Origin: a virus
Taxonomy: Duplodnaviria > Caudoviricetes
Reading direction: 5' to 3' (one strand)
DNA length: 64,000 bases
IMG/VR virus record: IMGVR_UViG_3300047160_035978
Coordinates: 713-64,712 of that record
The position numbers and the translations under genes were made by a program. Positions 44,345 through 62,601 of this stretch are shown here, one piece after another; position 1 is the stretch's first letter; the number at the start of each line of letters is the position of its first letter. The notes beneath the pieces are model-generated. The model was not told where the DNA came from, made no database searches, and saw only the letters and a program-made list of their open reading frames with translations.

Positions 44345-44581
44345 TTAGGCGGCTGCCTTCTGGCGCTGCTGCTTCACCTTCGGCAGCTCGCCGTAAATCT
44401 CGTCATAGGTGACACGGTGGCCGAGGCTTGCGGCGTGGGCGATCAGCTTCTTCGCCATATCGGGGGGCACCGTCTGCCCACGTTCGTAAAAGGAAACGTT
44501 GCCCTGCGTGCATCCAAGGGCTTCGGCGATGGCGCTCTGGCTAAGGCCCAGACGCTCGCGGATGGCTTTGAAGGTGTTCAC
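44345..44581 (-). CDS. cro: Cro-like repressor
   Basis: LGLSQSAIAEALGCTQGNVSFYERG; divergent from cI. Confidence 0.85.
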   Translation of the reverse strand: MNTFKAIRERLGLSQSAIAEALGCTQGNVSFYERGQTVPPDMAKKLIAHAASLGHRVTYDEIYGELPKVKQQRQKAAA

Positions 44582-44587
44582 GAGCGC

Positions 44588-44651
44588 ACATTAGTCCGAC
44601 TAAAGAGGATTGTCAACAGTCAGACTGTTTGTTGCTTATTAGTCGTACTTA
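44588..44651. promoter_or_regulatory. OR region: PR promoter and three operators
   Basis: Minus-strand TTGACA (44611-44616)-17bp-TAATGT; palindromes TTAGTC-C-GACTAA (44591), AACAGTC-A-GACTGTT (44615), TTAGTC-G-TACTTA (44639). Confidence 0.8.
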
Positions 44652-44664
44652 TATGGTTTGGACC

Positions 44665-45663
44665 ATGCCATCCAGACCACTAACCACGGAACAACAGGCC
44701 GACGCCGCGCGGCTCAAGACCCTCTTCGAGAACTGGCGGGAAGGCCGGGTTGCTGGCGGCGACAAGCGCAGCTACGACGAGCTGGCGGCCTCGATCGGCA
44801 TGAAGCAAAGCGCCTTCAGTCAGCGACTCAACGGCACGATGGCACTGAATGCCTCGTCCGCAGCCAGCTTTGCCCGCCTGATCGGCTGTTCAGTGGCGGA
44901 TTTCAGCCCCACATTGGCTGATCAAATCTCGAAGCAGGCAGCCACGCTGGCGCCTTCAACGGGTCAAGCGAGCCGTGTGACCGCTTTCCATCCTGATGAT
45001 CCAGTCGGAGATGAAGAGGTGCGAATCGAAGAATCGCGCCTGGTCCGCTTCGCCGGCGGCCGCGGCCACGAAGCCCCGATTTACGAGACCGTGGAGGACA
45101 GCGAGCCCGCAACGTATCGGCAATCTTGGTTCCAGAAAGAGCGCATCAATCCGCTCAAGACCAAGCGCTTTCGGATCACCGGCCACAGCATGGAGCCGAT
45201 GCTGTTTCCGAACGACACGGTGCTGGTGAACATTGAAGAGACAACGATCCGGGACGGTCACATCTATGCTATTGCCCAAGGCAATGCGATGCGCGTCAAA
45301 GTGCTCTACAAGCGGCCGGACGGCGTTTTGCTTCGCAGCATCAACTGGCAGGAATACCCTGACGAACTGGTCCAGGGCGCCGACCTGGAAGAATTTCGAG
45401 TAATCGGAAAGGTGCGCGACAAATCTGGCCGAGGCGGCCTAGCTGGTGTCCTACCTGATTTCGCAGTTCCTCAGCCGGGACGCATCGGTGGCGGAATGGA
45501 CAAAAACATCATGCGCGAAATCGTGGAACTGGTCGAAGGGGCATTTCCGAATGCATCGGCGTCGACCCGCGCCAACCTCATCGCCGAACTGTACGAACTG
45601 CGTCGCGAGAGCCCAGAGGTCCCAACAGAAAGGCTCTTGCGAATTGTAAAGATTGCGTCCTAA
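44665..45663 (+). CDS. cI: CI-like repressor (HTH + S24 peptidase) with C-terminal helical extension
   Basis: RPLTTEQQADAARLK (lambda CI-like), ITGHSMEP, VKVL. Confidence 0.9.
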   Translation: MPSRPLTTEQQADAARLKTLFENWREGRVAGGDKRSYDELAASIGMKQSAFSQRLNGTMALNASSAASFARLIGCSVADFSPTLADQISKQAATLAPSTGQASRVTAFHPDDPVGDEEVRIEESRLVRFAGGRGHEAPIYETVEDSEPATYRQSWFQKERINPLKTKRFRITGHSMEPMLFPNDTVLVNIEETTIRDGHIYAIAQGNAMRVKVLYKRPDGVLLRSINWQEYPDELVQGADLEEFRVIGKVRDKSGRGGLAGVLPDFAVPQPGRIGGGMDKNIMREIVELVEGAFPNASASTRANLIAELYELRRESPEVPTERLLRIVKIAS

Positions 45664-47974: not shown

Positions 47975-48002
47975 AAAAGCCCGCTCTGCGCGGGCTTTTT
48001 TG
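47975..48002. terminator. Bidirectional terminator between convergent TA modules
   Basis: AAAAGCCCGC-TCTGC-GCGGGCTTTTTT. Confidence 0.75.
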
Positions 48003-48047
48003 TGCCTTATTTGCCCGTCGAGAAACGAGCCCAAACTCGATGGGTTA

Positions 48048-48455
48048 TTAGGCTGCTTCCTTCTCCAGCCTCTCCATTGCCGCCCGAGCGAGGAATCCCG
48101 AGCGGGTCTCGCCAAGACGCTCCGCCCGATTGTCGATGGCGGTCAGCAGAGTCTCTGGGAGGGTGATGTTCAGCCGGATCGCCTTCTTGCTCAGCTTGGA
48201 GAGGTCCACCGCAACGAAGGCCCAGACGAAGCCGCGGTACTCGCGCTTGCCCTTGAGGTCTTCGATCTTGCTGGGAGCCGGAGCGCCGTGGCCCTTCTCC
48301 AGGTGATCCTCGAGCCAGAGCAGGGCGGCCTCCTCAGCGTTGGCCACGGCCTCGTCGAATGAGTCGCCGGCCGAGTAGCAGCCGGGAAGATCGGGAAACA
48401 CCACGCCGTAGGCCTGGCGGTCGTTGCCTTCTTCGATAGCGATGGGGTAGCGCAT
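48048..48455 (-). CDS. hicB: HicB antitoxin
   Basis: YGVVFPDLPGCYSAGDSFDEA, C-terminal RHH RLNITLP..TRSGFLARAA. Confidence 0.9.
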   Translation of the reverse strand: MRYPIAIEEGNDRQAYGVVFPDLPGCYSAGDSFDEAVANAEEAALLWLEDHLEKGHGAPAPSKIEDLKGKREYRGFVWAFVAVDLSKLSKKAIRLNITLPETLLTAIDNRAERLGETRSGFLARAAMERLEKEAA

Positions 48456-48511
48456 TTTTCTATCCTGCCTGGTTGAAACGATTCCTGTGAAACCTAGTGC
48501 TGCTGCCGAGC

Positions 48512-48694
48512 TTACTTCAGCCCGGCGTCCTTCTTGATCCGTGCGACGAGGCCGCCGCCCAAGTCTTTCTTGGGGTGCGGCACCGTGATCGTCAGCGGGT
48601 TGGTCGGGTGCTTGAACATGTGGTGGCTCCCACGCACGCGGTCGAGAACCCAACCTGCTTCCTTCAGCTGCTTGATCAGTTCGGCGCTCTTCAT
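48512..48694 (-). CDS. hicA: HicA toxin
   Basis: LKEAGWVLDRVRGSHHMFKHP..ITVPHPKKDL. Confidence 0.9.
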   Translation of the reverse strand: MKSAELIKQLKEAGWVLDRVRGSHHMFKHPTNPLTITVPHPKKDLGGGLVARIKKDAGLK

Positions 48695-48722
48695 GGTGTG
48701 TATTATACACACCTATACACAC
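48695..48722 (-). promoter_or_regulatory. hicAB promoter/operator (leaderless)
   Basis: Palindrome GTGTAT-T-ATACAC covering a minus-strand TATAAT about 7 nt from the ATG. Confidence 0.65.
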
Positions 48723-48757: not shown

Positions 48758-48810
48758 TTAGTCAGATGATTAGTCCGACTGTTGACTCTGATAATCAGTC
48801 CGACTAATCT
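48758..48810 (+). promoter_or_regulatory. OL region: PL promoter and three operators
   Basis: TTGACT (48782)-17bp-TAATCT; TTAGTC-A-GATGAT, TTAGTC-C-GACTGT, TCAGTC-C-GACTAA match OR consensus. Confidence 0.8.
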
Positions 48811-48837: not shown

Positions 48838-49394
48838 ATGGAACACCAAGCCTTCGACCCGAATCTGTCCGCCGCCGTCCGGCACACCGCCGTCCAGGAC
48901 GCCCACGCCGACGCCCTGAGCCGCGAAGTAGGGCAGTGCCGCACCTGGTCGGAGGACTTCCTGCAAGCCCTGGAAGGCGAGTTCCTGGCCGACGCAGACG
49001 AGCGCCGCATGGACTTGATCCGGATCGCCGCCAACCGCCGCTGCCTCGCCGCCCAGCGCGCCCTGCATAGCCTGTTCCGCAAGCTCGGGGACGGCGCGCA
49101 GCTGACCGCTGACGAACGCGCCCTGGCCGAGCACGCCCGCGATCTGGTCGAGGCCTACGCCGAGCGCCGCGTAGAGCGGATCGGTCTGTGATCGCCTCCG
49201 CCCCCATCCGCGTCATCACCGACGCCGAAACCACCGAGACCACCTGGTCGGCCTTCTGCGCCGACAACCTCGAAGGCTTCGATCAGGACCAGCTCGACGT
49301 CATGGCGCAGGAGCTGCGCCTGCACGGCGAGACCGACATTTCCCACCTCATGCACTGCGGCGAGCGCTGCGTGCTTTCCCGCGTCATCCAGTAG
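48838..49394 (+). other. Two hypothetical early genes (48838-49191, 49188-49394)
   Basis: First ORFs after PL, GTGA overlap. Confidence 0.6.
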
Positions 49395-49402
49395 GAGGCA
49401 CC

Positions 49403-49942
49403 ATGCCCGCAGCCAAGAAGAAGTCCGCCACCGCCCGCGCCCCGAAGCGCGCCATCCTGACCTGCCCCGACTTCATCAAGGTCAGCGCCACCGGCAAGAA
49501 GCTCCCGGCCTCGGCCGAGAACCACGCCGCGGTGATCTGCACCAAGTACCGCACCCGCAGCGGCCTGCCACTGATGTTCACGGCGCGCGACCTCGGCAGC
49601 CACAGCTATGAGGCGGCGCTGAAGCTGCCGGCGACGTTCGAGTTGCTGGGCGAGAAGGACTGGCGCCTGCCGGACGCGACCGAGTCCGCTTTCATGCTCA
49701 ACCGCGCCAACTGGCCGGCGAAGGACGCGCAGTTCTTCCCGGGTGAGGCGGGCTGGCAATGGACGGGCGAACCCACGTCCGATTCGTCGTACGCCTTCGG
49801 CGTCAGCCTCCGCTACGGCTGCGTCGACTGGAGCTACCGCTACCGCGGCGGGCTCGTCCGGCTGTGCCGCGAGGTCTCCCCCCGTCAGGCTTTGGCTTTT
49901 GGCATCCCCGTGGGGCCGGGCGCGGCGAAGGGCAAGCGCTAG
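49403..49942 (+). CDS. DGR target protein 1 (DUF1566/CLec-like)
   Basis: GEKDWRLPDATE..WQWT; contains VR1. Confidence 0.85.
   Translation: MPAAKKKSATARAPKRAILTCPDFIKVSATGKKLPASAENHAAVICTKYRTRSGLPLMFTARDLGSHSYEAALKLPATFELLGEKDWRLPDATESAFMLNRANWPAKDAQFFPGEAGWQWTGEPTSDSSYAFGVSLRYGCVDWSYRYRGGLVRLCREVSPRQALAFGIPVGPGAAKGKR
49776..49885 (+). repeat. DGR variable region VR1
   Basis: 110-bp copy of TR with 15 mismatches, all at TR adenines. Confidence 0.97.
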
Positions 49943-49951
49943 GCCCTCGCC

Positions 49952-50609
49952 ATGAACGGCCAGCACGACTTCGCCCATTCCGAGCATCTGATGCGCGCCC
50001 GCCGCAACCGGTTCCTGGTGCACGCCGCCAGCTGGCTCGCGGCGCTGGGATTCCTCTACGGCCTCGGCGCGCTGGTCTGCAAGGTGATCGCCCGATGAAC
50101 GCCAACCTCTCCGAGCCCGTGCGCTCGCTCTATGTGGCGCACGGCTTCTTCTCCGAAGCCTACATGCGCCGGTTCTTCCCGAACGGCCCCTGCACCAAGC
50201 AGGAGGCCATCCCGAAGCGCGAGGGCCCGGCGAACGACGCCAGTCCCTACGACGCCCACCGCCAGCAGGGAGCCGCAGCGTGAAGCGCCTGAACGATGCG
50301 CTGGCTGGCCTGCTCGTGGGCTTCTTCCTTGGCCTGATGCTGTTCTGCCTGTTCGCACAGCCGGCCCACGCGGGCGGCTACCCGCCGCGCTCGGAACCGA
50401 TCCAGGCACCCGTCATCGCCCTGGTCCACGAGCAGCGCGGCTGCCCGCGCGGCCAGTGGCGCGCCTACTTCTTCCAGGACGCCTTCGAACCCGTCGCGTT
50501 CTGCTGGCGCCGCTGCGGCGACGTGGTGGAAGTCCTCGACCGCGCCAACCTCATCACCACCATGCCGGCCTCCCGCTTCGCGCCGGTCTCGCAAGGAGTT
50601 TCCCAGTGA
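49952..50609 (+). other. Three small early genes (49952-50098, 50095-50283, 50280-50609)
   Basis: ATGA/GTGA overlap chain. Confidence 0.55.
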
Positions 50610-51232
50610 ACGACCTCATTTCCGGCGTCAGCCTGATCACCGCAGCGCGCGAGCGCCAGATGCAGCCGCAGGCCGTCCTCGCATTCCGCGAGCGCCTGGC
50701 GTACCTGGGCGCCGACATCGCCGGCCTGATCGACGATCTGCAGCCGGCGCCGCTGCCGGCCAGCGACCCGGCCTTCATCGATCCCCTGGCCGAGCCCGAA
50801 ATCATCCTGCTCGACGCCAACTGCCAGCCGATGAAGCCGGACGCGGGCCGCGCCACGGCCTTCTACCTGCCGCAGTACCGGCGCATGTATACCGCCGACG
50901 TGGTGTCCGCCTCCAACTGGGCGGCGGCCGTCGCCATGGGGCCGGCCGGCCGGCTGTTCGGCGAAACCGACTGGCACCTGGTCCGCGTCAAGGAACTGGA
51001 GCCGCTGATCTGCCGCGAGCAGCACGACCCGGCCACCTATCCGGTGCTGAAGCCGTACACGCCGACCAACGACTGGTACTGGACCGCCGACCCGCATCCG
51101 TCCGGTTCGTCGTGCGCCTTCGGCGTCTACCTCGGCGGCGGCAGCGTCTCCTGGGTCAGCCGCAACGCCAGCGGGCTCGTCCGGCTGTGCCGCGAGGTCT
51201 CCCCCCGTCAGGCTTTGGCTTTTGGGAAGTAG
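50606..51232 (+). CDS. DGR target protein 2 (DUF1566/CLec-like)
   Basis: GTG after AAGGAG; GETDWHLVRVKEL..WYWT; contains VR2. Confidence 0.85.
   Translation: MNDLISGVSLITAARERQMQPQAVLAFRERLAYLGADIAGLIDDLQPAPLPASDPAFIDPLAEPEIILLDANCQPMKPDAGRATAFYLPQYRRMYTADVVSASNWAAAVAMGPAGRLFGETDWHLVRVKELEPLICREQHDPATYPVLKPYTPTNDWYWTADPHPSGSSCAFGVYLGGGSVSWVSRNASGLVRLCREVSPRQALAFGK
51099..51208 (+). repeat. DGR variable region VR2
   Basis: 110-bp copy of TR with 17 mismatches, all at TR adenines. Confidence 0.97.
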
Positions 51233-51240
51233 GCCAGGCC

Positions 51241-51516
51241 GTGTCCGCTCAGCCAGAACTCGCGATGCCCGGCCCGGCGACGCCCGACTACCTAGCGCGG
51301 CTGGCAAAGCATCGCCAGCTGGTGGCCGAGGTCGACCGTGACGAGCGGGCGAAGGGGCTGCCTCAGGCCGAGCTGTTCCAGCTGCAGCCGCCGGCGCCGA
51401 CCGATCCGGAGTACCCGGGCGATGACGTGCTGGTGGGTCTGGTCTGCGGCGCCCTGAAGGTGCCGCTGGAAACCGCCAGGGCGTGGCTGGAGCAGTACCC
51501 GCATTTTCCGCTGTGA
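51241..51516 (+). CDS. Hypothetical protein
   Basis: Co-oriented ORF between target 2 and ERF gene. Confidence 0.5.
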   Translation: MSAQPELAMPGPATPDYLARLAKHRQLVAEVDRDERAKGLPQAELFQLQPPAPTDPEYPGDDVLVGLVCGALKVPLETARAWLEQYPHFPL

Positions 51517-51557
51517 CTGAATTTTCAACTGCCGGCTCGTCCGGCAAAGGAACTGAT

Positions 51558-52319
51558 GTGAGCAAGCCCCTGACCGCTGCCTCCCTGATGGAGCGCGAGG
51601 AATCCCTGCCGGTGCCGACCACTGGCACGCCTGACAGCATGCTGGTCTACGCGATGCAGAAGGGCGCCAGCATCGCGGACATCAAAGAGCTGTATGCCCT
51701 GCAGCAGCAGTTCGAGGCCGACGAGGCCCGCAAGGCCTACACCGTCGCCATGGCTGCCTTCAAGGCCGAGCCGATGGAAATCCTCAAGCGCAAGCTGGTG
51801 AGCTTCACGACCCGCGACGGCGACACCACCAGCTATCGCCACGCGGAGCTTTCGGACATCACCGATGTGGTGGCGCCGGCAATGGCCAAGCACGGACTGA
51901 TGCACCAGTGGGATGTGCGCCAAGAGAATGGCGGCGTGGTGGTGGACTGCATCATCAAGCACGAACTCGGCCACTCCGAGAAGGTGACGATGTTCGCCCC
52001 GCCGGATTCCTCCGGCAAGAAGAACGCGATCCAGCAGATTGCATCGAGCACCACCTACCTGATGCGCTACACGCTGCTGGCCGCAACCGGCATGGCCACC
52101 AAGGGCATGGACGACGACGGCCAGGGCGGTGAGCCAGTGCTGATGACCGAGGAGCACGCCGACACCATTGACTCCCTGTGCAAGGAGATCGGCCCCAAGA
52201 TCCTCGGTAGCGTCCTGAGCGAGTACCGCGTCAAGGAGCTGGCCGAAATCCCCGACTCCGAGTACGAGGACATCGTCCGCCGCCTGAACGTCACCAAGCA
52301 GCAGCGGGCGGCGAAATGA
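51558..52319 (+). CDS. ERF-family single-strand annealing recombinase
   Basis: YRHAELSDI, KHGL, QQIASSTTYLMRYTLLAATG..DDDG. Confidence 0.85.
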   Translation: MSKPLTAASLMEREESLPVPTTGTPDSMLVYAMQKGASIADIKELYALQQQFEADEARKAYTVAMAAFKAEPMEILKRKLVSFTTRDGDTTSYRHAELSDITDVVAPAMAKHGLMHQWDVRQENGGVVVDCIIKHELGHSEKVTMFAPPDSSGKKNAIQQIASSTTYLMRYTLLAATGMATKGMDDDGQGGEPVLMTEEHADTIDSLCKEIGPKILGSVLSEYRVKELAEIPDSEYEDIVRRLNVTKQQRAAK

Positions 52320-52933
52320 CCGAGGAACTGGTCCAGGGCAGCCCCGAGTGGGTGGCCGCGCGCCTCGGCAGCTTCGGCGCCTCCATGCTCGGCGCGCTGA
52401 TGGCCAAGGGCGAGGGGAAGACCCGCGCCAAGCTGATCGACCAGCTCGCCTGCGAGCGCCTAAGCGGCAAGCCGCAGGGCTGGGAGGGCAACAGCGCCAC
52501 CGAGGCCGGCCACGCGCAGGAGCCGCTGGCGCGGCGCGCCTATGGCGAGCGCCATGGCGTCTTCGTGCAGCAGGTCGGCCTGATCCGCCACGCCGCGCTG
52601 CCGTTCTCCCACGCGAGCCCGGATGGCCTGGTGGACGAAGACGGCGGCTTGGAGCTGAAGTCCCACGTCAAGTTCATGACCCACTTCGCCGCGATCCAGG
52701 CCGGCATGAGCAAGGCGCACGTCTACCAATGCCAGTGGGGCATGGCCTGCACCGGGCGCAGCTGGTGGGACTACGGGCACTTCTGCGCCGAGGCGCCGGA
52801 GCACATGCGCTTGCATATGTTCCCGCGCATCCAGCGGGACGAAACCATCATCGCGACCCTGGCCGTGGCGATCCGCGACGCGGAAGTCGAGGTCGCGGCC
52901 AAGGTCGAGCAATTCTCTAAGAGGGCCGCATGA
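52316..52933 (+). CDS. YqaJ/lambda exonuclease-family protein
   Basis: QGSPEWVAARLG, ASPDGLV, LELKS, QCQWGM. Confidence 0.9.
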   Translation: MTEELVQGSPEWVAARLGSFGASMLGALMAKGEGKTRAKLIDQLACERLSGKPQGWEGNSATEAGHAQEPLARRAYGERHGVFVQQVGLIRHAALPFSHASPDGLVDEDGGLELKSHVKFMTHFAAIQAGMSKAHVYQCQWGMACTGRSWWDYGHFCAEAPEHMRLHMFPRIQRDETIIATLAVAIRDAEVEVAAKVEQFSKRAA

Positions 52934-53997
52934 GTACCGAACTCGAACTGGTCAACAAGGCCGTTGCGGACTTCGACGCCGTGGCCGAGGGTATCCAGTC
53001 CCTGAAGGCGCAGTATGCCGGCGTCGTCTACGACGTCAGCACCGGCAAGGGCATGACCGAGGCCAAGGGCGCCCGCGCTGCGATCCGCGAGCCCCGCTAC
53101 GCCATCGAGAACACCCGCAAAGCGGCCAAGGCCCCGATTCTGGCGCTCGGCAAGCGCTTGGACGGCCGCGCCGCCGAGATCACCGACGAGTTGCTGGCGA
53201 TCGAGGAACCGATCGACCAGCAGATCAAGGCCGAGGAAACGCGAAAGGAAGCCGAGCGCCAGGCCAAGATCGAGGCCGAGAAGAAACGCGTTGCGGACAT
53301 CCAGGACCGCATCAACGAACTGCGCGGCACCATCGGCGCGGCCAGCACCAGTTCTGCCGCACTGATCCTCGAGCATATCGGCGACCTGGACAGGATCCAG
53401 ATCGACGACAGCTTCGCCGAATTCCGCCAGCAGGCCGAGGACGCCAAGACGGCAACCCTCGCCACGCTGGCCAAGATGTATGACGAGCGCGTGCAGCACG
53501 AAGCCGAACAGGCTCGCATCAAGGCGGAGCGCGAGGAACTGACCCGGCTGCGCGCCGAGCAGGAAGAGCGCCAGCGGAAGGAACGCGCCCAGCGGGAGGC
53601 TGAGGAGGCCGAAGCCCGCAGGAAGCGCGAGGCGGAAGAGGCCGAGGCCCGCAAACTGCGCGAACAGGAAGAAGGTCGCCTCCGCCAGGAGCGCGCCGCC
53701 CTGGAAGCCGAGCAGGAGCGCCAGCGGCAGGCCCAGGCCGAACTCGACCGCCAGCGCGCCGACCTGGAGGCCAAGCGCCAGCAGCAGGAGCGCGAGGAGC
53801 GGACGCGCCGCGACGAAGCTGCCCGCGCCGAGCGCTTGCGCAACATGTCCGTGCAGGAGCGCTTCGGCGCTATCTGTTGGGACCTAGCCGGCAAGCGTCT
53901 GAACGACCACGACTTGTCCACCCGCTTCATGTCCGCTTTCGCCCGCGACGGCCTGGCGCTCGTGAAGGTCAAGGCTGCCATGCAGGAGGCCGCGTAA
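52930..53997 (+). CDS. Long coiled-coil protein
   Basis: Glu/Arg/Ala-rich heptads; located between exonuclease and ssb. Confidence 0.7.
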   Translation: MSTELELVNKAVADFDAVAEGIQSLKAQYAGVVYDVSTGKGMTEAKGARAAIREPRYAIENTRKAAKAPILALGKRLDGRAAEITDELLAIEEPIDQQIKAEETRKEAERQAKIEAEKKRVADIQDRINELRGTIGAASTSSAALILEHIGDLDRIQIDDSFAEFRQQAEDAKTATLATLAKMYDERVQHEAEQARIKAEREELTRLRAEQEERQRKERAQREAEEAEARRKREAEEAEARKLREQEEGRLRQERAALEAEQERQRQAQAELDRQRADLEAKRQQQEREERTRRDEAARAERLRNMSVQERFGAICWDLAGKRLNDHDLSTRFMSAFARDGLALVKVKAAMQEAA

Positions 53998-54431
53998 TGT
54001 TCACCACTCTTTTCCGCATCGGCCGCGACGCCGAGCTGCGCACCATCGCTAGCGGCGAATCCGTCACCGACCTGGCGCTGGCCTACAACTACGGCCGCAA
54101 GGGTCAGGACGGCAAGCAGCCGACCCAGTGGATCAAGGCCGCGCTCTGGGGCAAGCGCGCCGAGTCCCTGGCGCCCTACCTCAAGAAGGGCGGCCTGATC
54201 GTCGCCACGCTGGACGAAGTGCATATCCAGTCGCGCGAGCACGAAGGCAAGACCTACACCGACCTCGTAGCCCGCGTGGTCGACGTGCGGCTGGTGCCGT
54301 CGGCCAAGGCGCCGGAGAAGCAGGAGCAGCCGAAGCCCAAGCCGGCGCCCAAGCCCGAATCGCAGGGCGGCGGCGCATTCGTCGACGACGACATCCCATT
54401 CAATCGCAAGTCGGGCCTGGACGCGCTGTGA
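53997..54431 (+). CDS. ssb: Single-stranded DNA-binding protein
   Basis: RIGRDAELR, LWGKRAESLAPYLKKG, acidic DDDIPF tail. Confidence 0.9.
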   Translation: MFTTLFRIGRDAELRTIASGESVTDLALAYNYGRKGQDGKQPTQWIKAALWGKRAESLAPYLKKGGLIVATLDEVHIQSREHEGKTYTDLVARVVDVRLVPSAKAPEKQEQPKPKPAPKPESQGGGAFVDDDIPFNRKSGLDAL

Positions 54432-54721
54432 GCCTCCAGGACCTCTACCAGGACGCGCTCGACCACATCGCCAAGGTGGCGGGGATGGCACGCATCCAGA
54501 CCGACCGTCTGGCCTTCATCGAGGCGCGGGCCAAGACAGCCCTGTCCGGTGAGCGCTGGAACCCGCGCTATGTGAAGTACCCGAAGCAGTCGACCAAGAA
54601 GCACCTGGTCAAGCAGCTGCTGCTGGTGACCGACAACCGGCCGGAAGAGCGCCAGATGGTGATCGGCTGGCTTCAGGCCGGCGTGATTCCGGAGCCCACT
54701 CTCGAAGAGGCGGAAGGCTGA
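54428..54721 (+). CDS. Hypothetical protein
   Basis: GTGA overlap with ssb. Confidence 0.55.
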   Translation: MSLQDLYQDALDHIAKVAGMARIQTDRLAFIEARAKTALSGERWNPRYVKYPKQSTKKHLVKQLLLVTDNRPEERQMVIGWLQAGVIPEPTLEEAEG

Positions 54722-54939
54722 TGACCCGTCTCGGAGACGCCATCCGCCTCTACCGCCAGTCCCTGCGCCTGCTGCAGAAGGATGTGGCGGCCGAGATCGG
54801 CATCCCGGCTGGCGCTCTGTCCCGGCTGGAGAACGGCGGCGGCCTCGACATGGCCGACCTGGTGAAGGTCATGGCGTGGCTCACCGCAGGGCCGATCACC
54901 ACCGCAACCGAACAACCCCAGCAAGCGCTGGGCGTGTAA
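54721..54939 (+). CDS. XRE-family HTH protein
   Basis: LGDAIRLYR..LLQKDVAAEIGIPAGALSRLENG. Confidence 0.8.
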   Translation: MTRLGDAIRLYRQSLRLLQKDVAAEIGIPAGALSRLENGGGLDMADLVKVMAWLTAGPITTATEQPQQALGV

Positions 54940-54962
54940 CCCATTCCCCACAGGAGCATCCG

Positions 54963-55391
54963 ATGCCCGATTCCGCCGCTGTCGCCGTTTCCCGCTGGAC
55001 CAAGCTCGAGGAGGGCTGCGTCCGCGACAACATCCTCTACACCCGCCTGGACGGCTCGCAGTTCCAGCGTGAGTGGAGCCCCTTCCTGCCGGTCAACAGC
55101 CACTACGACATCGACAAGGTGGCGTCCGAGTGCGCGCTGCTCGGCGGCGGCTGGCACGTGGCCAACCCGCAGGAGCTGTTCACGACGCTGAACCACGCCA
55201 AGTACAACCCGGCGATGGACGAGGAGATCGCGGGCGGCAAGACCGGCGGCTGGGTCTGGACATCCCAGATCGATCCGTCCGATTCGTCGTACGCCTTCTA
55301 CGTCGGCCTCGGCCACGGCGGCGTCAGCTGGGGCACCCGCAGCGGCGGCGGGCTCGTCCGGCTGTGCCGCGAGGTCTCCCCCCGTCAGTAA
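54963..55391 (+). CDS. DGR target protein 3 (DUF1566/CLec-like), adjacent to avd
   Basis: AGGAG RBS; LGGGWHVANPQEL..WVWTS; contains VR3. Confidence 0.85.
   Translation: MPDSAAVAVSRWTKLEEGCVRDNILYTRLDGSQFQREWSPFLPVNSHYDIDKVASECALLGGGWHVANPQELFTTLNHAKYNPAMDEEIAGGKTGGWVWTSQIDPSDSSYAFYVGLGHGGVSWGTRSGGGLVRLCREVSPRQ
55276..55385 (+). repeat. DGR variable region VR3
   Basis: 110-bp copy of TR with 16 mismatches, all at TR adenines. Confidence 0.97.
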
Positions 55392-55415: not shown

Positions 55416-55865
55416 ATGAATCCCACCATCCCTCACATCGTGAAAGCCGCCGGCAGCCTTCTGCTGGAAGTGGAGAAGGCTGTGGCGGACTTCCCGAGGA
55501 AGCACCGCTATAGCCTCGGCACGGATCTGAGGGATGGCGCGATCAACCTGGTGCTGTTGGGCCAGGAGGCGAGCAGAGCGGGACGGGAGCCGAACCGCCA
55601 GCGTGCCCTGCTGCGCGAGCTGTCCCGCTGCATCGACAAGCTGAAGCTGCAAATCCTCATGGGCCACCGCCTGCAGTGCTTCAGCTTCGCGCGGTGCGAG
55701 CTGCTGACCACGATGGCCGCGAGTTGCGGCCGGCAGTGCGGCGGCTGGCTGAAGGCCCATACCATCAAACACCCGAAAGGCCAGAATCCTGCCGCTTCAG
55801 GGCGGCAGGAGCGCGCCGAGATTCTGAGTACCGCTGCCGCCTCCGGCCAGGGGGCTTACGCATGA
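55416..55865 (+). CDS. avd: DGR accessory variability determinant (four-helix bundle)
   Basis: FPRKHRYSLGTDLR ... CGRQCGGWLKA; between VR3 and TR. Confidence 0.9.
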   Translation: MNPTIPHIVKAAGSLLLEVEKAVADFPRKHRYSLGTDLRDGAINLVLLGQEASRAGREPNRQRALLRELSRCIDKLKLQILMGHRLQCFSFARCELLTTMAASCGRQCGGWLKAHTIKHPKGQNPAASGRQERAEILSTAAASGQGAYA

Positions 55866-57217
55866 CGACGCCACGCTACCAGACCGGATGCGTGGCCGGG
55901 TCCCAAGCGCAGCGGGATGCGTCCGATTCGTCGTACGCCTTCAACGTCAACCTCAACAACGGCAACGTCAACTGGAACAACCGCAACAACAGCGGGCTCG
56001 TCCGGCTGTGCCGCGAGGTCTCCCCCCGTGAGAATCAGGGTGTAATACTCCGTGAGCTGCATGCCGCCTACCGCAGCGCCCGCGCTGGCAAGGTGCCGAG
56101 CGCCGATCAGCTGCGCTTCGACTGCAACTGGATGGAGGAATTGCTGGGGCTGCAGGCCGAGCTGAACGGCTTCGCCTGGAAGCCCGGCCGCAGCACCCTG
56201 ACCATCGCCAGCAGGCCGAAGGCGCGCGAGATCCATGCGCCGGCCTTCCGCGACCGCGTCGTGCACCACGCCCTGATGCCATACCTTGAGGCCGCCTGGG
56301 AGCCCGTGTTCATCCACGACTCCTACAGCAACCGGAAAGGCAAGGGCACGCTGGCGGCGATGAAGCGGGCCCGGCAGTTCATCCGCCAGGTGCACAGCGG
56401 CCAGGGCGGTGGCTGGTGTCTGAAGCTCGACATCCGCAACTTCTTCAACAGCATCCGGCGGGACATCCTGTGGGCGCAGCTGAAGGGGCGCCTGGTCCGC
56501 GCCGGCGCGCCGAAGTGGGTGCTGCGCGCCGTGCACGCCCTCCTGCGGCAGTCCCCGCTCGCCGCCGGCGTGCTCGACCTCACCACCGCTGCGCAGCGCG
56601 CCCTAGTGCCGCCGCACAAGCGCCTGGCCAATGCAGGGCAGGGCAGGGGGCTGTGCATCGGCAACCTGTCCTCCCAGTTCTTCGCCAACGTCTACCTCAA
56701 CGACCTCGACCAGTTCGTCAAGCATGAGCTGAAGGCGCAGCGGTATGTCCGCTACGTCGACGACTTCCTGCTGATCCACCAGGACCGCGAACAGTTGCAA
56801 AAATGGAAAGAGTTGGTCATCGCCTTCCTGCGCGACCGGCTCGGCCTGGAGCTGAAGGACGAAGGCGAACTGAAGCCGCTGACCGAGGGCGTGGATTTCC
56901 TCGGCTACGTCATCCGCCCCACCCATACCACCGTTCGACGCCGCGTCGTCTCCCACGCTCGCGAGAAGCTGTCGCTGTGGGAGCAGCAGCACGTTACCGC
57001 CGGCAGCGCCCGCGCCACGCCTGAGCAGTATCGCCAAGTCCGCGCTGTCTGGGCCTCCTACGACCTGGGCCACTTTCCCCATGCGAACAGCCACCGGCTG
57101 ACGCAGGACTTCCACCGCCGCTATCCCTGGCTGCACCAGCTGGCCGAGGTGCCGCGGCGATTCCATAACCGACTCGAAGGAAAGCACGTGACGATCAAAC
57201 TGGTGGTGGCGGCATGA
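55862..57217 (+). CDS. DGR reverse transcriptase (N-terminus includes translated TR)
   Basis: FRDRVVHHAL, LKLDIRNFF, GLCIGNLSSQFFAN, YVRYVDDF, GVDFLGY; ATG overlaps avd stop. Confidence 0.95.
   Translation: MTTPRYQTGCVAGSQAQRDASDSSYAFNVNLNNGNVNWNNRNNSGLVRLCREVSPRENQGVILRELHAAYRSARAGKVPSADQLRFDCNWMEELLGLQAELNGFAWKPGRSTLTIASRPKAREIHAPAFRDRVVHHALMPYLEAAWEPVFIHDSYSNRKGKGTLAAMKRARQFIRQVHSGQGGGWCLKLDIRNFFNSIRRDILWAQLKGRLVRAGAPKWVLRAVHALLRQSPLAAGVLDLTTAAQRALVPPHKRLANAGQGRGLCIGNLSSQFFANVYLNDLDQFVKHELKAQRYVRYVDDFLLIHQDREQLQKWKELVIAFLRDRLGLELKDEGELKPLTEGVDFLGYVIRPTHTTVRRRVVSHAREKLSLWEQQHVTAGSARATPEQYRQVRAVWASYDLGHFPHANSHRLTQDFHRRYPWLHQLAEVPRRFHNRLEGKHVTIKLVVAA
55920..56029 (+). ncRNA. DGR template repeat (TR)
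   Basis: Ten AAC codons in a GC-rich genome; invariant source for VR1-3. Confidence 0.97.
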
Positions 57218-57674
57218 GCCTGCCTATCTGCGGAGATACCCACGCCCTACTGTCGCAGCTGGAGAAGTCCGGCGCCGAGTTCGGTCTGGTCGCGTCCAGC
57301 CCCAGCCTGCCGGAGAACGTGCGCCTGGAGAACCAGGAGGACATCCAGCGGGTGATGGTGAGGGTGCGGCTGGCGGTGAACACCGGCGCGCGGGAGAAGA
57401 GTCTGTGAACGGCGACTACGTCCCTCTGGTGTTCAACAAGGCCGATCCCATGGTGATCGTGTTCCGTCTGCCCGAGGCATTGCCCAGCGGCTTTTGCTTC
57501 AGCGGCGGATACGCGGTCAACTTCCAGATGGTCGACTGGTTCCAGTCCCGCCCCGAGCTGGGCGAGGATGCCCTGCGCGATTTCATCCGCCGCAAGCCCT
57601 ACTACAAGGCCGGCGGCAACTTTCTGGTGCTGGCGCGCGCCGGTTCGGCTTTCCTCGTGGATGTGCCGGCATGA
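57214..57674 (+). other. Two small hypothetical genes (57214-57408, 57405-57674)
   Basis: Overlap chain. Confidence 0.55.
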
Positions 57675-59608
57675 GCGAAATCGAAATCCGCCACTTCCAT
57701 ATGTGCTGCGGCTCCGGCGGCGGCAAGAAGGGCTTCAACCGAGGCACGGCTAGGGTTGGCCGCATGGTTGCAGTGCCGCGCTGCATCGGCGGCGTCGACA
57801 ACGATCCGGATGCGATCGAGGACTTCAACGCCGAGGGCGGTGCAGCTGGCACGGTGCTGGACCTCTTCACGCGCGAGCAGTATCGGGCTTTCCACGGCCA
57901 CGAGCCACCGGAAGGTTGGCGCGAGGCGACGCCGGCGGACATCATCCGCGCCGCGCACAACCTGCGCCCGCACGTCATCTTCATGTCGGCACCGTGCAAG
58001 GGCTTCTCCGGCCTGACCTCCGAGACCAAGAGCCGGGAGGAGAACTACGTCGCGCTCAACGAGCTGGCGCTGCGCTGCGTCTGGCTTTGCCTGGAGGCCT
58101 GGAAGGATGACCCGGTGGAATTCATCCTGTTCGAGAACGTGCCGCGCATCATGCACCGCGGCAGGCCGCTGCTGGAGCACATCCAGGCGCTGTATCGGGC
58201 CTACGGCTACGTCTATGCCGAGACCACCCACGACTGCGGAGAGCTGGGCAACCTGGCGCAGAGCCGCAACCGCTTCTTGATGGTCTCTCGCAATGCCGAG
58301 AAGGTGCCGAGCTTCCTGTACGAGCCGCCGCGGCGCCCGCTGCGGGCGGTGGGCGACGTGCTGTCGCGCCTTCCGATGCCAGGCACTGCCGCGGCGGCGT
58401 CGAACCCGCTGCACCGGTTGCCGCGCCTTCAGTGGAAGACCTGGGTGCGCCTGGCCTTCGTCCAGGCTGGCAAGGACTGGCGCTCCCTCAACCGCCTGCG
58501 GGTGGTGGACGGCGAGCTGGCCGACTTCGGCATCGTGCCCGACACGATCTATCGCAACGATGCCTTCGGGGTGAAGGGCTGGGAGCAGTCGGCTGGCACC
58601 ATCACCGGCAACGGCCGCCCCGCCGCCGGCGCCTTCAGCGTGGCAGACCCGCGCTTCGATCCCAATCTCTACGACTGCAGCCAGTACGGCGTGCAGCGCT
58701 GGGACCAGACCGCGCGCACCGTGATCGGCCTGAAGTCGCCAGGCCAGGGTGGCTACAGCGTGGCGGACCCCCGCGTCGGCCATGGGCCCTCTGGCCCGCA
58801 CTTCAGCAACGTCTACCGCGTCGTGCGTTGGGACCAGGTCGGTCCGACGATCTCCAGCGGCCACGGCCCCAGCGCGGGCGGCATGGCTGTCGCCGACCCT
58901 CGGCCGGGCTGGGATCGCCACCAGAACGCGCTGCAGGTCGGTGAGTGGGACAAGCCCACCGGCACGATCATCGGCGGCGGCAAGGGTGTGCAGGGCGGCT
59001 GGGGCTCGATCGCCGATCCGCGCCTGAACTGGGGTGAGGGCGCGCACGGCAGCAAGCTGCAGGTGCAGGACTGGGATGGACATGCCGGGACGATCACCGG
59101 CGCGCGCTTCCAGAGCGGAGCCCAGGCGGTGGCGGACCCGCGGCCCGGCCTCGATCGCGGGAAGGGTGACCACTACCTGACCTGCGGCCACTATGGCGTC
59201 ATTCCATGGGATCGGCCGTCGAATGCCGTCACCGGCGCCGGGCGCCATGACAACGGCTTCGGCAACGTCGCAGACCCGCGGTTGCCGGCGCCAGCTGACC
59301 GCCTCAACGCCATCATCCTCGCCGAGGACGGCACCTATCACCGCCCGTTCTCGACCCTGGAGAACGGCGCCCTGCAGAGCTACGTCGACTTGGAGGAATG
59401 GGCCGACTTCCGCATGGCGGGTAACTCCGAAAGCCGGAAGCGGGAGCGCATCGGAAACATGGTGCCGCCGGACACGGCGCAGGCCATCGCCAGCCAGATG
59501 TACAAGACCCTCCTGCTGGCCTGGTCGGGCGAGACCTTCATCCTCAGCAACGAGCCGGTGTGGGTGCGCGAACAGATCATCGCCATTTCGTGCGGGAGCG
59601 CTGCGTGA
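57671..59608 (+). CDS. DNA cytosine-C5 methyltransferase with six tandem internal repeats
   Basis: HMCCGSGG (motif I variant), SAPCKGFS, FENVP, IGNMVPP; W-x-T-I-x-G...ADPR repeats. Confidence 0.85.
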   Translation: MSEIEIRHFHMCCGSGGGKKGFNRGTARVGRMVAVPRCIGGVDNDPDAIEDFNAEGGAAGTVLDLFTREQYRAFHGHEPPEGWREATPADIIRAAHNLRPHVIFMSAPCKGFSGLTSETKSREENYVALNELALRCVWLCLEAWKDDPVEFILFENVPRIMHRGRPLLEHIQALYRAYGYVYAETTHDCGELGNLAQSRNRFLMVSRNAEKVPSFLYEPPRRPLRAVGDVLSRLPMPGTAAAASNPLHRLPRLQWKTWVRLAFVQAGKDWRSLNRLRVVDGELADFGIVPDTIYRNDAFGVKGWEQSAGTITGNGRPAAGAFSVADPRFDPNLYDCSQYGVQRWDQTARTVIGLKSPGQGGYSVADPRVGHGPSGPHFSNVYRVVRWDQVGPTISSGHGPSAGGMAVADPRPGWDRHQNALQVGEWDKPTGTIIGGGKGVQGGWGSIADPRLNWGEGAHGSKLQVQDWDGHAGTITGARFQSGAQAVADPRPGLDRGKGDHYLTCGHYGVIPWDRPSNAVTGAGRHDNGFGNVADPRLPAPADRLNAIILAEDGTYHRPFSTLENGALQSYVDLEEWADFRMAGNSESRKRERIGNMVPPDTAQAIASQMYKTLLLAWSGETFILSNEPVWVREQIIAISCGSAA

Positions 59609-60831
59609 GCCGTCCCCGCATCCAGGCCGACCTGTTCAGCGCCTCCCCGCGCATGGAGGTCGGCGAGGCCATGGAACTGACCGTCCAGTCGCTTCTGGCC
59701 CACGCCACGGTGCATGAGCACTGGGCCATCGCTTGGTCCGGCGGAAAGGATTCGACTTGCACCTTAACGCTGGTGATCGCGCTGATCGAGAGCGGAGCCG
59801 TGCCGCGGCCGAAGTCACTGACGGTCTTCTATGCCGACACCCGCATGGAACTGCTGCCGCTGGCAGTGGCTGCGATGGCGATCATTGCCCGGCTTCGGGA
59901 GATCGGGATCCGGGTCGAGATCGTGACGGCGCCGCTGGACAAGCGCTTCTTCGTCTACATCCTCGGCCGTGGCGTGCCGCCGCCGAACAACAATACGCTC
60001 CGCTGGTGCACCCGGCAGATCAAAGTCGACCCGATGCAGGAGGCGCTGGGCGCGCGCCTGGAGGAGCTTGGTGGCTCCGCGGTGATGATCACCGGCGTCC
60101 GCGAGGGCGAGTCGGCGGTGCGCGACCGGCGCATCGAGATGAGCTGTTCCAAGGACGGCGCCGAATGTGGCCAGGGTTGGTACCAGAAGGTGGTGCCGGA
60201 GTCGCCGGGCCTGCGCGGCAAGCTGGCGACCTTGGCGCCGATCCTGCATTGGCGGGTCTGCCTGGTCTGGGATTGGCTGCGCATTTACGCGCCGATGCCG
60301 GAGTACGGCGCCTGGTACACCGCGCCGATCGCTGATGCCTACGGCGGCGACGAGGCCGAGGAGATCAACGCGCGCACCGGCTGCGTGGGCTGTCCGCTGG
60401 CCGAGAAGGAAACGGCGCTGGATGCCGTCCTGCTCACGCCGGAGTGGTCCTATCTCGCGCCCTTGCGCCGCCTCAAGCCGATCTACCGCTGGCTGCGGAA
60501 GCCCGAGAACCGCCTGCGCAAGCCAGGCCTGGAGCCGCTGAAGAGCGGGGGTTTTTCATCCAACCCGCAGCGCCTGGGCCCGCTCACCTTCGAGGCTCGG
60601 CTGGAGGCGCTGGGCCAGGTGTTGGCCATCCAGGCCGAAGTGAACAGCGCCGCGGCAGAGCAGGGGCGGCCGGTGCTGGACCTGCTCAATGCCGAGGAAG
60701 AAGCCCGCATCCGGGAACTGATCGCGGCGGAGACCTGGCCGGACGGCTGGGAGGGCGATGAACCCACGGGTGACGTGCCGCTCGACAAGGTGAACGCGGG
60801 CGGGTCGGTCCAATGGCTGCTGGTGCGCTGA
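59605..60831 (+). CDS. PAPS reductase-family (DndC-like) protein
   Basis: WSGGKDST, RWCTRQIK, GVREGES..R, RTGCVGCP. Confidence 0.85.
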   Translation: MSRPRIQADLFSASPRMEVGEAMELTVQSLLAHATVHEHWAIAWSGGKDSTCTLTLVIALIESGAVPRPKSLTVFYADTRMELLPLAVAAMAIIARLREIGIRVEIVTAPLDKRFFVYILGRGVPPPNNNTLRWCTRQIKVDPMQEALGARLEELGGSAVMITGVREGESAVRDRRIEMSCSKDGAECGQGWYQKVVPESPGLRGKLATLAPILHWRVCLVWDWLRIYAPMPEYGAWYTAPIADAYGGDEAEEINARTGCVGCPLAEKETALDAVLLTPEWSYLAPLRRLKPIYRWLRKPENRLRKPGLEPLKSGGFSSNPQRLGPLTFEARLEALGQVLAIQAEVNSAAAEQGRPVLDLLNAEEEARIRELIAAETWPDGWEGDEPTGDVPLDKVNAGGSVQWLLVR

Positions 60832-61264
60832 TGGGCGGCAAGACCGTGTCACCGGAAGTTGTCGCCCTGGCGCTGAAGATCGCCGACAGCGTGTCCCGGT
60901 CTGATATCGAGTGCTACTGCCTGATGACCAAGAACCGCCGCATCTGGTGGTACGACACGGCCGTTGCCGAGCCGGAGGATGCCGAGTTCGTCGCCGAGGC
61001 GGTGCGCTACCTCGATCTGCGCGGCCTGCTCGTGCACCACGAAGCGGACGGAAAGCTGGTGCGGTTCAAGAAGGAGGGCGAAGCCTGATGGCCGAGCAAA
61101 TCAAGATCGAGTGCGGCGATCCCCGCTGCACGACCTGCGGTCTGGAGATCACTACCGGCCTGATGGCAGTGTTCTGCCCGCGCCGGCAGCAGTGCGAGTT
61201 CTATCCGCAGGAGCCGGAGTTGCAGGAGTTCGTCGAGGAGCTGCGCAGCGGGGTGGCGGCATGA
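60831..61264 (+). other. Two small hypothetical genes (60831-61088, 61088-61264)
   Basis: TGATG overlaps. Confidence 0.55.
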
Positions 61265-61599
61265 CACCCGAGCGCATCCAGCTGAGCCGCGCCAAGGGCT
61301 GGCGCATGCCGCCCAATACGGTGAAGGTCGACCGGACTACGAAGTGGGGCAATCCTTTCCGTGACTACGGACCGCCGGTGAAGCACCTGCTTGAGGTCTG
61401 GGGCTGGAAGCTTCGCAACTGGGGGGAAGAGTGCGGGACCGCCGAGGAAGCCGTCCAGCGCTTCCGCGCATGCGTCGCCTTCGATGGAGCATCCATCGCT
61501 CTGGCGCGCAAGGAATTGCGCGGCAATAACCTGGCTTGCTGGTGCCCGCCGGGAGCGCCCTGCCATGCCGATGTGCTGCTGGAGATCGCGAATGGATGA
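61261..61599 (+). CDS. DUF4326 protein
   Basis: VDRTTKWGNPF, LRGNNLACWC..PCHADVL. Confidence 0.85.
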   Translation: MTPERIQLSRAKGWRMPPNTVKVDRTTKWGNPFRDYGPPVKHLLEVWGWKLRNWGEECGTAEEAVQRFRACVAFDGASIALARKELRGNNLACWCPPGAPCHADVLLEIANG

Positions 61600-61870
61600 C
61601 ATCCGCGACCAGCTGCTGTCCGACCTGGCCAAGGCCGAGCTGAAGGCCTGGGAATCCCTGGCCCGCTACAAGTTCTGGATGTTCGGCTACCACGCCGCCG
61701 ATGTGGTGCGAATCAACCGGCGCCTGCGGCTGAAGCGGCCCAACCCTTTCCGCGTCATCGTCATGGTGGCGCGCGAGGTGCTGAAGGCGTGGCCGCGGCC
61801 TGTCTCAATTCCTCGGGAGATTACCCAGAAAGACCTGGGATTTGAGACTGAGCTGAAGGAGGCGGCGTGA
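61592..61870 (+). CDS. Hypothetical protein
   Basis: Co-oriented ORF. Confidence 0.55.
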   Translation: MDDIRDQLLSDLAKAELKAWESLARYKFWMFGYHAADVVRINRRLRLKRPNPFRVIVMVAREVLKAWPRPVSIPREITQKDLGFETELKEAA

Positions 61871-61872
61871 TG

Positions 61873-62022
61873 CTACCTCTTTTGCGCCGCCATCAGCGCC
61901 TGCGCCTCCGACTCGCTGATGGTCTTGCCGCCGACCGTGCTGGAAGCGCAGCGGGTGCATTTCTGCTGCGGGCCTTGCGGCACTGGCTTCTTGCAACTCG
62001 GACAGATGACGTAGGTGGCCAC
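61873..62022 (-). CDS. Small antisense zinc-ribbon protein (49 aa)
   Basis: GTG after AGGAG; CPSC...CTRC. Confidence 0.55.
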   Translation of the reverse strand: MATYVICPSCKKPVPQGPQQKCTRCASSTVGGKTISESEAQALMAAQKR

Positions 62023-62069
62023 GGCCTGATCTCCTCGGTGTTGTGCGGCAAGCATACACCGGGTCAGGC

Positions 62070-62081
62070 GGGGGGGGGGGG
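62070..62081 (+). repeat. Poly-G homopolymer (G12)
   Basis: Twelve consecutive G, 4 nt upstream of GTG 62086. Confidence 0.9.
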
Positions 62082-62085
62082 TGAC

Positions 62086-62601
62086 GTGAGCCTCTTCCCG
62101 CTCATCCGCTTCGACTCCATCCCACCGGACCAGGCCAACGACGCCCTGCGCCGCTGGGGCCATCGCATGGGCGCCGTGGAGCGGCCCTACGACAATACCC
62201 CCTGGGTGCACGGCCTGTTCCACGCCGAGCAGCTCGTGGCGCTCACCTATACGTCGACGCTGATCCGTGAGCACGTGGGCGGCGGCCTGGGCCATCTGGA
62301 CCGCTCGAACTGCCTGGAGCTGGCGCGCCTCTGCGCAGACCGGCCAGGCCTATGCCGCGTGGCACTCCGGCTGTGGCGCGAGTTCGTGTTTCCTGGCCTG
62401 GGCGTGCCAGTGGCGATCAGCTATCAGGATGCGGACTTGCACAGCGGCAACACGTACCGGTTCGACGGTTGGGAAAAGGTCGGCTTCTCGCGCAGCGGCA
62501 GCAGCGATCCGCGCACCGGAAGACAAGGCCGTGATCGGGTCATCTGGGCCTGGCCGCGCGGGGCTTGCGCCCGGCTGGCCGAGCGGCGGGGGGCGGCATG
62601 A
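62086..62601 (+). CDS. Mom-like (GNAT-fold) DNA modification protein
   Basis: LELARLCA, AISYQD..HSGNTYRFDGW resemble Mom-family motifs. Confidence 0.6.
   Translation: MSLFPLIRFDSIPPDQANDALRRWGHRMGAVERPYDNTPWVHGLFHAEQLVALTYTSTLIREHVGGGLGHLDRSNCLELARLCADRPGLCRVALRLWREFVFPGLGVPVAISYQDADLHSGNTYRFDGWEKVGFSRSGSSDPRTGRQGRDRVIWAWPRGACARLAERRGAA

Follow-up and report, generated by a model that had tools for sequence, protein, structure and literature searches.

What do the hypervariable proteins of a phage diversity-generating retroelement (DGR) act upon, and in which compartment, when their genes lie far from the tail module? The question is raised by a stretch of 64,000 nt (hereafter the window, positions 713-64,712 of IMG/VR record IMGVR_UViG_3300047160_035978; all coordinates are those of the window), in which a DGR is accompanied by three small target genes, T1, T2 and T3. 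Phage DGR biology is read almost wholly as the switching of tropism through tail fibres; this lineage points to targets that are not part of the virion. The best-supported reading, which we hold to be moderately probable, is that T1-T3 are non-virion proteins acting early and inside the cell. The provirus record (64.7 kb, 65% G+C, estimated completeness 81%) has its nearest relatives among prophages of Nevskia and Rhodanobacter genomes. The public runs with provirus sequence are soil metagenomes, none of those listed being RNA, and the host is probably a Nevskia-like gammaproteobacterium of soil.

The retroelement and its repeats

The element is an intact DGR, with Avd, a template repeat (TR) and a reverse transcriptase (RT). 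The Avd gene (55416-55865, plus strand) matched phrog_3206, 'Avd protein of DGR' (5.6e-15), as well as the Pfam family bAvd, at 24.5 bits and under the cut-off of 40. The RT gene (55862-57217, plus strand; RVT_1, 1.1e-17) encodes the RT domain from about 56039 onward, and its translation contains an IGNLSSQ motif and YVDD, which we take to fit the I/LGxxxSQ signature of DGR-type enzymes. It likely starts at the ATG at 55862, overlapping the Avd stop (ATGA), and this start places the TR inside the 5' part of the RT reading frame; the TR also lies inside the RT gene in the gene calls of the orthologue. With such a start, translation of the TR would supply the first 60 residues of the RT (55862-56039). 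Relatives of this RT, 41-75% identical to it, each stand beside an Avd gene and variable repeats (VRs) biased at adenines.

A 31-nt probe (up to 3 mismatches), together with a search of the whole 64.7-kb record, revealed one repeat family of four copies, namely VR1 (49741-49888), VR2 (51064-51211), VR3 (55241-55388) and the TR (55885-56032). The 112-nt core of the TR (55921-56032, plus strand) has 25 adenines, 20 of which fall in its ten AAC codons. Compared with it, the plus-strand cores of VR1 (49777-49888), VR2 (51100-51211) and VR3 (55277-55388) carry 16, 18 and 17 mismatches, of which 15, 17 and 16, respectively, stand at TR adenines. This makes 48 of 51, the other three being the same G>C change at the 3' boundary. 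The three VRs also differ pairwise, at adenine sites, which indicates that each was rewritten separately. The repeat ends, on its 3' side, in 36 G+C-rich nucleotides that are identical in the TR and all VRs; beyond them, the VRs have CAG...GGCTTTTGG in common and the TR diverges, a difference of the initiation of mutagenic homing (IMH) type. No hairpin folding better than shuffled sequence was detected after the VRs, and a Rfam search of 48.5-58 kb gave no match, hence no known DGR RNA element. All target reading frames and post-VR motifs are intact.

Natural diversification of a remote target was shown by two assemblies of one Nevskia prophage (L028 and L029), which may come from one sample. 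They differ at 16 positions in 17,325 nt, and all 16 lie opposite TR adenines, in the VR of the T1 orthologue (7174-7227), 7 kb from the RT, and create no stop codon; this is population heterogeneity exactly where a DGR would act. For the phage of the window itself, contig sets from four soil metagenomes were compared with the window. Depth was low and no variant letters were listed; the contigs break at VR1, VR2 and the TR, and the breaks at VR1 and VR2 are at most indirect evidence of ongoing mutagenic homing.

The three target proteins

The targets are all encoded on the plus strand. T1 (49403-49942, 179 aa) has an Lcl_C domain between Lys/Arg-rich N- and C-terminal tails, and its orthologues are likewise basic at both ends; T2 (50606-51232, 208 aa, GTG start) carries a helical extension at its N-terminus (residues 2-44) ahead of the domain; T3 (54963-55391, 142 aa, ATG start) contains the Lcl_C domain only. 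Their scores for Lcl_C/DUF1566 (PF07603) are 39.0, 43.4 and 39.0 bits, respectively, for a Pfam gathering cut-off of 34.9. Searched over the whole provirus, this domain was found in no other gene and in no tail gene, and no tail gene contains a VR. No hydrophobic leader is apparent in T1-T3, the maximal 15-residue Kyte-Doolittle means of the full reading frames being 0.95-1.22, and the maximum of T2 falls upstream of its chosen start.

From a structural point of view, the AlphaFold2 model of T2 (pLDDT 83) places the helices at residues 2-44, followed by the lectin domain. Among 48,161 solved chains, its top structural match was the C-terminal domain of Legionella Lcl (8q4e; VIA-align Z 9.7, 119 residues). 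Next came the DGR targets TvpA (Z 6.5) and Mtd (Z 6.0), together with numerous C-type lectin domains at about 6. Foldseek also placed 8q4e first, with a probability of 0.93 but an E-value of 0.06; against the PDB and BFVD, it gave only weak E-values (0.01-0.06), yet the top matches were of the expected family. The Atlas model of T3 matched Lcl_C clusters, with TM-scores of 0.71-0.74. The domain scores, the hydropathy values and these models support the assignment of T1-T3 to small, single-domain Lcl_C/DUF1566 proteins with a predicted C-type-lectin fold and no export leader. When 36 members of the family, drawn from the window and 20 related loci (21 sources), were aligned, the whole protein proved to be the lectin domain, some members having a short N-terminal strand and a longer type of paralogue a helical N-terminal extension; no cysteine column is conserved across the 36 members. 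About 40 residues precede the lectin domain in T3, and two to three helices in T2; no match to a fibre domain was found.

A preliminary description of the locus, made from the sequence letters alone, had already proposed the C-type-lectin fold and the absence of signal peptides, had given the three protein lengths correctly, and had noted that no tail or fibre gene holds the VR peptide; all of this agrees with the above results, only four repeat copies being present in the provirus. It had also stated that the targets end in the VR peptide, which is so for T3, while T1 continues for 17 residues and T2 for 6 residues beyond it. Nor are the N-termini simply 'unrelated', as it had described them: each of the three proteins is a complete Lcl_C domain, extended by a short stretch, with an orthologue of its own in related prophages.

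Gene order and putative early control

Codon-position G+C and PHROG matches gave a lambda-like map of the provirus, which is a lambda-like temperate myovirus. The target operon is placed between a cI-like repressor gene and Avd-RT, and the targets are interleaved with ERF, YqaJ and SSB genes; T1, T2 and T3 are each closely packed behind the upstream gene. They lie at least 43 kb from the fibre gene and on the opposite strand. Indeed, terminase, portal, sheath, tape measure, baseplate and the 1026-aa fibre (3.6-34 kb) are all encoded on the strand opposite to the targets. A Cro-like helix-turn-helix (HTH) gene (44345-44581, minus strand) heads this leftward arm, with replication and then late genes, and from it the minus strand bears DnaB, terminase, portal, protease, sheath, tape measure, baseplate and fibre genes. 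From 44629 on, the plus strand encodes the cI-like repressor, which contains a S24 (LexA-type) peptidase domain (44629-45663; phrog_4, 1.3e-28; also the CI-like phrog_6201); some cargo genes come next, then HicAB in inverted orientation and, from 48838, the packed operon.

Putative operators link the two regions. A perfect 13-bp palindrome, TTAGTCCGACTAA (44591-44603), and a copy with 2 mismatches (44639-44651) form an OR-like pair (44591-44651) in the gap between cro and cI; a PL-like pair (48770-48807) is made of copies at 48770-48782 and 48795-48807, with 1 and 2 mismatches. The latter copies flank a TTGACT hexamer resembling a -35 element and stand 30-70 nt ahead of orf48838, with which the operon opens. 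Matches to TTAGTCCGACTAA number four in the 64 kb, versus 0.31 expected, and occur only in the cro/cI gap and just upstream of the target operon, the same arrangement as OR and OL/PL in lambda. A heteroimmune Nevskia prophage shows a comparable duplication, in which another inverted repeat occupies both of these places. A terminator-like site (47988-48005) follows the cargo genes on the cI side; across a scan of 44-58 kb, which includes the operon, terminator-like sites were not above background. A promoter scan likewise gave nothing above background, and it missed the PL-like promoter because its -10 element is weak.

The shared operators support a PL-like early promoter controlled by the repressor, and expression of the targets early in infection would follow from this layout. 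The preliminary description had spoken of a 'PL early operon' set among recombination genes. The positions of ERF, YqaJ, SSB, Avd and RT bear out the second point; as for the first, 'PL' was an analogy, to which the operators in common with the cro/cI switch now lend support.

It should also be noted that the inverted HicA/HicB-like toxin-antitoxin pair (48048-48722, minus strand), recognised by reading its translations and not through a family search, stands between the cargo genes of the cI side and the PL-like operators, and that its promoter must share the operator region.

Recurrence in related phages and prophages

A search with the RT yielded 23 viral contigs; species-representative genomes contributed eight closely related loci, in Nevskia and Rhodanobacter. 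In all, about 30 related phage or prophage loci (Nevskia, Rhodanobacter, Mu-like and other backbones) have two to three small targets, always of the same kind of small protein, and two to three VRs were present in 25 of the 27 loci with enough sequence. In nearly all loci, the VR/TR mismatches are mostly at adenines, typically about 90%. The neighbours include ERF-YqaJ, RecT-PDDEXK, RecE/Sak4-like or other annealing proteins, and the Mu transposase A, B and Gam, together with primases, replication initiators, ParB, large DNA methylases and integrases. In none of the loci do the targets lie inside a tail module. The most distant (L027, RT 41% identical) is alone ambiguous and alone has tail genes closer than 4 kb, a tape-measure gene standing about 3.8 kb downstream of the targets.

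Gene order is kept in four Nevskia prophages, in the sequence orf49188, T1, an exported protein, T2, recombination module, HTH gene, T3, Avd and RT. Each target has its own orthologue in related prophages, and those of T1 and T2 are 54-77% identical, compared with 70% for Avd and 75% for the RT. No hit was obtained among 50,697 isolated phage genomes, either by megablast with the 8.5-kb region or by tblastn with a consensus-like target. Distant cultured relatives were found through the RT alone. Members that are cultured or borne by isolates include Magia, a phage of Burkholderia, the mitomycin-inducible prophage of Rhodanobacter thiooxydans LCS2 and several phages of Pseudomonas and Shewanella.

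Some further observations concern these loci. Relatives have exchanged the recombination module that separates T2 from HTH-T3, with the flanking targets staying in place: ERF/YqaJ/SSB in the window (51483-54431), PDDEXK/RecT/RNase T, and YqaJ/SSB (L030, 4180-8640; L077, 3127-5009). In at least nine loci of this lineage, the DGR cassette adjoins a gene for a single-strand-annealing protein or for Mu Gam, and phage annealing recombinases might help to install the mutagenised cDNA. Two Mu-like IMG/VR contigs, L008 and L013, have two tandem small targets, Avd and RT directly after gam in the early operon (about 6460-8930 in L008), and their targets differ from each other mainly inside the VR.

Possible functions of the targets

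The early cytoplasmic reading of T1-T3, which the preliminary description had also proposed, is favoured because the genes stand behind putative immunity operators and on the strand opposite to all virion genes, because neither an export signal nor an anchoring domain was recognised in the proteins, because no cysteine column is conserved in their family, and because the module moves between phages with unrelated virions. With such portability across backbones, every type of virion would have to offer a fitting docking partner if the targets were tail-tip adhesins. From a mechanistic point of view, the RT copies the RNA of the TR, making errors at adenines, and the resulting cDNA replaces the 3' ends of the three target genes. 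The targets would then be made early and would stay in the cytoplasm, without becoming part of the virion, so that each incoming genome would express its own variants. A variant that binds some variable molecule inside the cell, belonging to the host or to a competing element, would let its genome succeed, by host takeover or counter-defence.

Accessory proteins of the lambda PL operon (Ral, Kil, CIII and Gam) and the early accessory proteins of Mu mostly bind host proteins. This analogy, together with the gene neighbourhood, suggests an anti-defence function, one of the examples given in the preliminary description, and we put forward a role specifically in counter-defence as a tentative proposal only. 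The wider view, that a widespread DGR lineage of temperate phages supplies each phage with a small set of hypervariable lectin-fold binders of the cytoplasm, made as infection starts and evolving in real time against variable host immune proteins or rival elements, as a form of adaptive counter-immunity, is just as speculative. If intracellular action is true, these proteins would be the first hypervariable intracellular effectors of viruses, and they would offer a natural scaffold for evolvable intracellular binders.

Several points weigh against early cytoplasmic action. To our knowledge, every relative of known role among Lcl_C/DUF1566 proteins or DGR targets (Lcl, LdtA, Mtd, the fibre tips of Bdellovibrio) is an extracellular adhesin, and in phage structure libraries the same domain also tips long fibre proteins. 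One family member (L005:5601) and a possible long form (L027:6526) have hydrophobic N-termini. Neither T1-T3 nor the small neighbouring reading frames belong to any PADLOC or PHROG family, and no resemblance to a described defence or anti-defence protein was detected, no anti-defence library having been searched. Concerning expression, the -10 element of the PL-like promoter is weak; moreover, in five related loci the cassette lies between primase and terminase, and late co-transcription is possible there because it is directly upstream of the terminase and portal genes.

In a more conventional explanation, T1-T3 would be accessory adhesins docked on fibres, baseplate or capsid, varying the recognition of hosts or surfaces as Mtd does, with genes that simply happen to be located outside the tail module. 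Characterised phage DGR targets are all receptor-binding proteins (PMC5758913, PMC8144416), this function is the default of the field for prophage targets without other domains (bioRxiv 10.1101/2024.11.15.621889; Magia announcement), the fold is shared with Mtd and with the DUF1566 domains of fibre tips, and the cassette abuts packaging genes in some relatives. Such a role nevertheless fits poorly with an operon behind putative immunity operators and opposite to all structural genes, with proteins in which no anchoring or trimerisation domain was recognised (T3 being a bare domain), with the absence of any VR or Lcl_C domain from the tail genes, and with the recurrence of the same small proteins in phages of unrelated structural modules, including right after Mu gam. 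We consider it rather unlikely. Action outside the cytoplasm could also be imagined for proteins devoid of a leader, either through release at lysis or via the presumably exported 109-aa protein, which is translationally coupled to T2, with binding to glycans of the envelope or environment. This conserved protein carries a signal peptide, its gene runs into the start of T2, Nevskia prophages retain both genes together, and the known ligands of Lcl_C are extracellular glycans (entry title of 8q4e). Yet a partner of this kind is lacking for T1 and T3, a protein without a leader is not expected to leave by the Sec route, and the 109-aa protein contains no twin-arginine motif and would be in another compartment than T2; this is the least probable of the explanations.

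A role in the lysogen was weighed as well, the prophage producing variable sensors or exclusion factors directed against incoming phages or other elements. Intracellular DGR targets tied to conflict systems are documented in cellular genomes (PMC10907252, PMC7159879), other cargo of lysogen type such as HicAB is near, and variants arising in lysogens would require some DGR expression there. This scenario appears improbable, since the target genes lie past the terminator-like site that would end the cI operon and behind putative operators that should silence them in the lysogen, the usual slot for lysogen cargo, directly 3' of cI, is filled by other genes, and the targets have neither a PADLOC match nor an effector domain. 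Finally, position may be uninformative, if the target-Avd-TR-RT cassette is a mobile module which settles in permissive early or accessory regions and draws little or no benefit from its targets. The very different backbones that carry it, and its vicinity to integrases, HNH genes and swapped modules, are in line with this. By contrast, the remote T1 and T2 keep their positions and their orthologues, as conserved as Avd and RT, all reading frames and post-VR motifs are intact, and the VRs of near-identical genomes differ only at adenine sites and without stops, which makes this explanation very improbable.

Other genes of the operon and provirus

The operon opens with two small reading frames of 117 and 68 aa (48838-49394, plus strand), the second of which is 83% conserved in Nevskia prophages; neither matched a Pfam, PHROG or PADLOC family. 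The 109-aa protein (50280-50609, plus strand) has a cleavable-looking signal peptide (AHA|GG), and its stop overlaps the T2 start (GTGA). Next to T2 it is conserved in L030 and L032, and in Nevskia prophages the pair is maintained at 57-83% identity, the AHA|GG motif being invariant. The plus-strand recombination module (51483-54431) comprises ERF (51483-52319), a YqaJ exonuclease (52316-52933), a DUF1351-like protein and the single-stranded DNA-binding protein SSB (53997-54431). A HTH_3 regulator (54721-54939, plus strand) directly precedes T3, a pairing conserved in Nevskia prophages. On the 3' side of the RT lies a DNA-modification island (57671-63419) with two methylases, one of them of 645 aa, as well as a PAPS-reductase-like protein (phrog_12882, 9.5e-210) and a Mom-like protein. 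Two DNA methylases with Mom-like and PAPS-reductase-like neighbours are typical counter-restriction cargo.

Comparison with known systems

The DGR of BPP-1 (mtd-avd-TR-brt) shares with the present one Avd, a TR, an adenine-specific RT and a VR at the C-terminus of a protein with C-type-lectin fold. It differs in having a single target, Mtd, a 381-aa trimeric protein of the tail-fibre tip encoded in the tail module, whereas the window has three targets of 142-208 aa, in a putatively early operon and with no recognised anchoring domain. The preliminary description had opposed the locus to such 'classical' DGRs, and the novelty was thereby overstated, given that short targets made of DUF1566 only have been catalogued (PMC5758913) and that the layout is annotated in Magia (MT701587). 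Wu et al. (2018; PMC5758913) indeed listed targets of DUF1566 type, half of them short and domain-only, without discussing their genomic position or role, and Roux et al. (2021) split viral DGR targets into structural and 'unknown' ones, the latter being left unanalysed. In our literature searches, no paper was met in which the DGR targets of phages are regarded as early or as intracellular.

The closest known parallel is Magia, a phage of Burkholderia cenocepacia (MT701587; PMC7883833), which is also a temperate myophage, with the same early-arm layout and both remote and adjacent small targets. Its order is cro | repressor, target gene 57, PD-(D/E)XK nuclease and RecT, regulator, target gene 47, Avd, RT and integrase. 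By contrast with the window, its RT is only about 40% identical, it has two annotated 'lectin fold domain' targets instead of three, and these score 20-26 bits on Lcl_C, under the cut-off, with no significant BLASTP similarity to T3. The announcement of Magia remarked on the 'relatively short reading frames' and suggested adaptation or a change in host range, without functional analysis. Between gene 47 and Avd, gene 46 of Magia (L077, 7891-8355), a 'hypothetical protein', has a sub-threshold Lcl_C match of 24 bits; Magia may thus encode three lectin-fold proteins, one of them without annotation as a target.

Among other known systems, LdtA of Legionella pneumophila and the 'category d / CLec2' targets (PMC5758913) similarly carry their VR in a lectin fold of DUF1566 type, but LdtA is a Tat-exported surface lipoprotein encoded on a genomic island, while the targets described here are genes of a phage operon of presumed early type and have no export signal. 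The C-terminal domain of Legionella Lcl (PDB 8q4e; PF07603), the top structural match and the family of all three targets, belongs to a secreted collagen-like adhesin that is not diversified by a DGR. The intracellular sensors of multicellular bacteria (PMC10907252; PMC7159879) offer a precedent of intracellular DGR targets in conflict systems; they differ in that they are large cellular proteins of several domains, among them NTPase and effector domains and lectin folds of FGE type, in place of small stand-alone proteins of a phage. The layout is therefore already present in public phage records, to which the window adds a three-target member of a catalogued kind.

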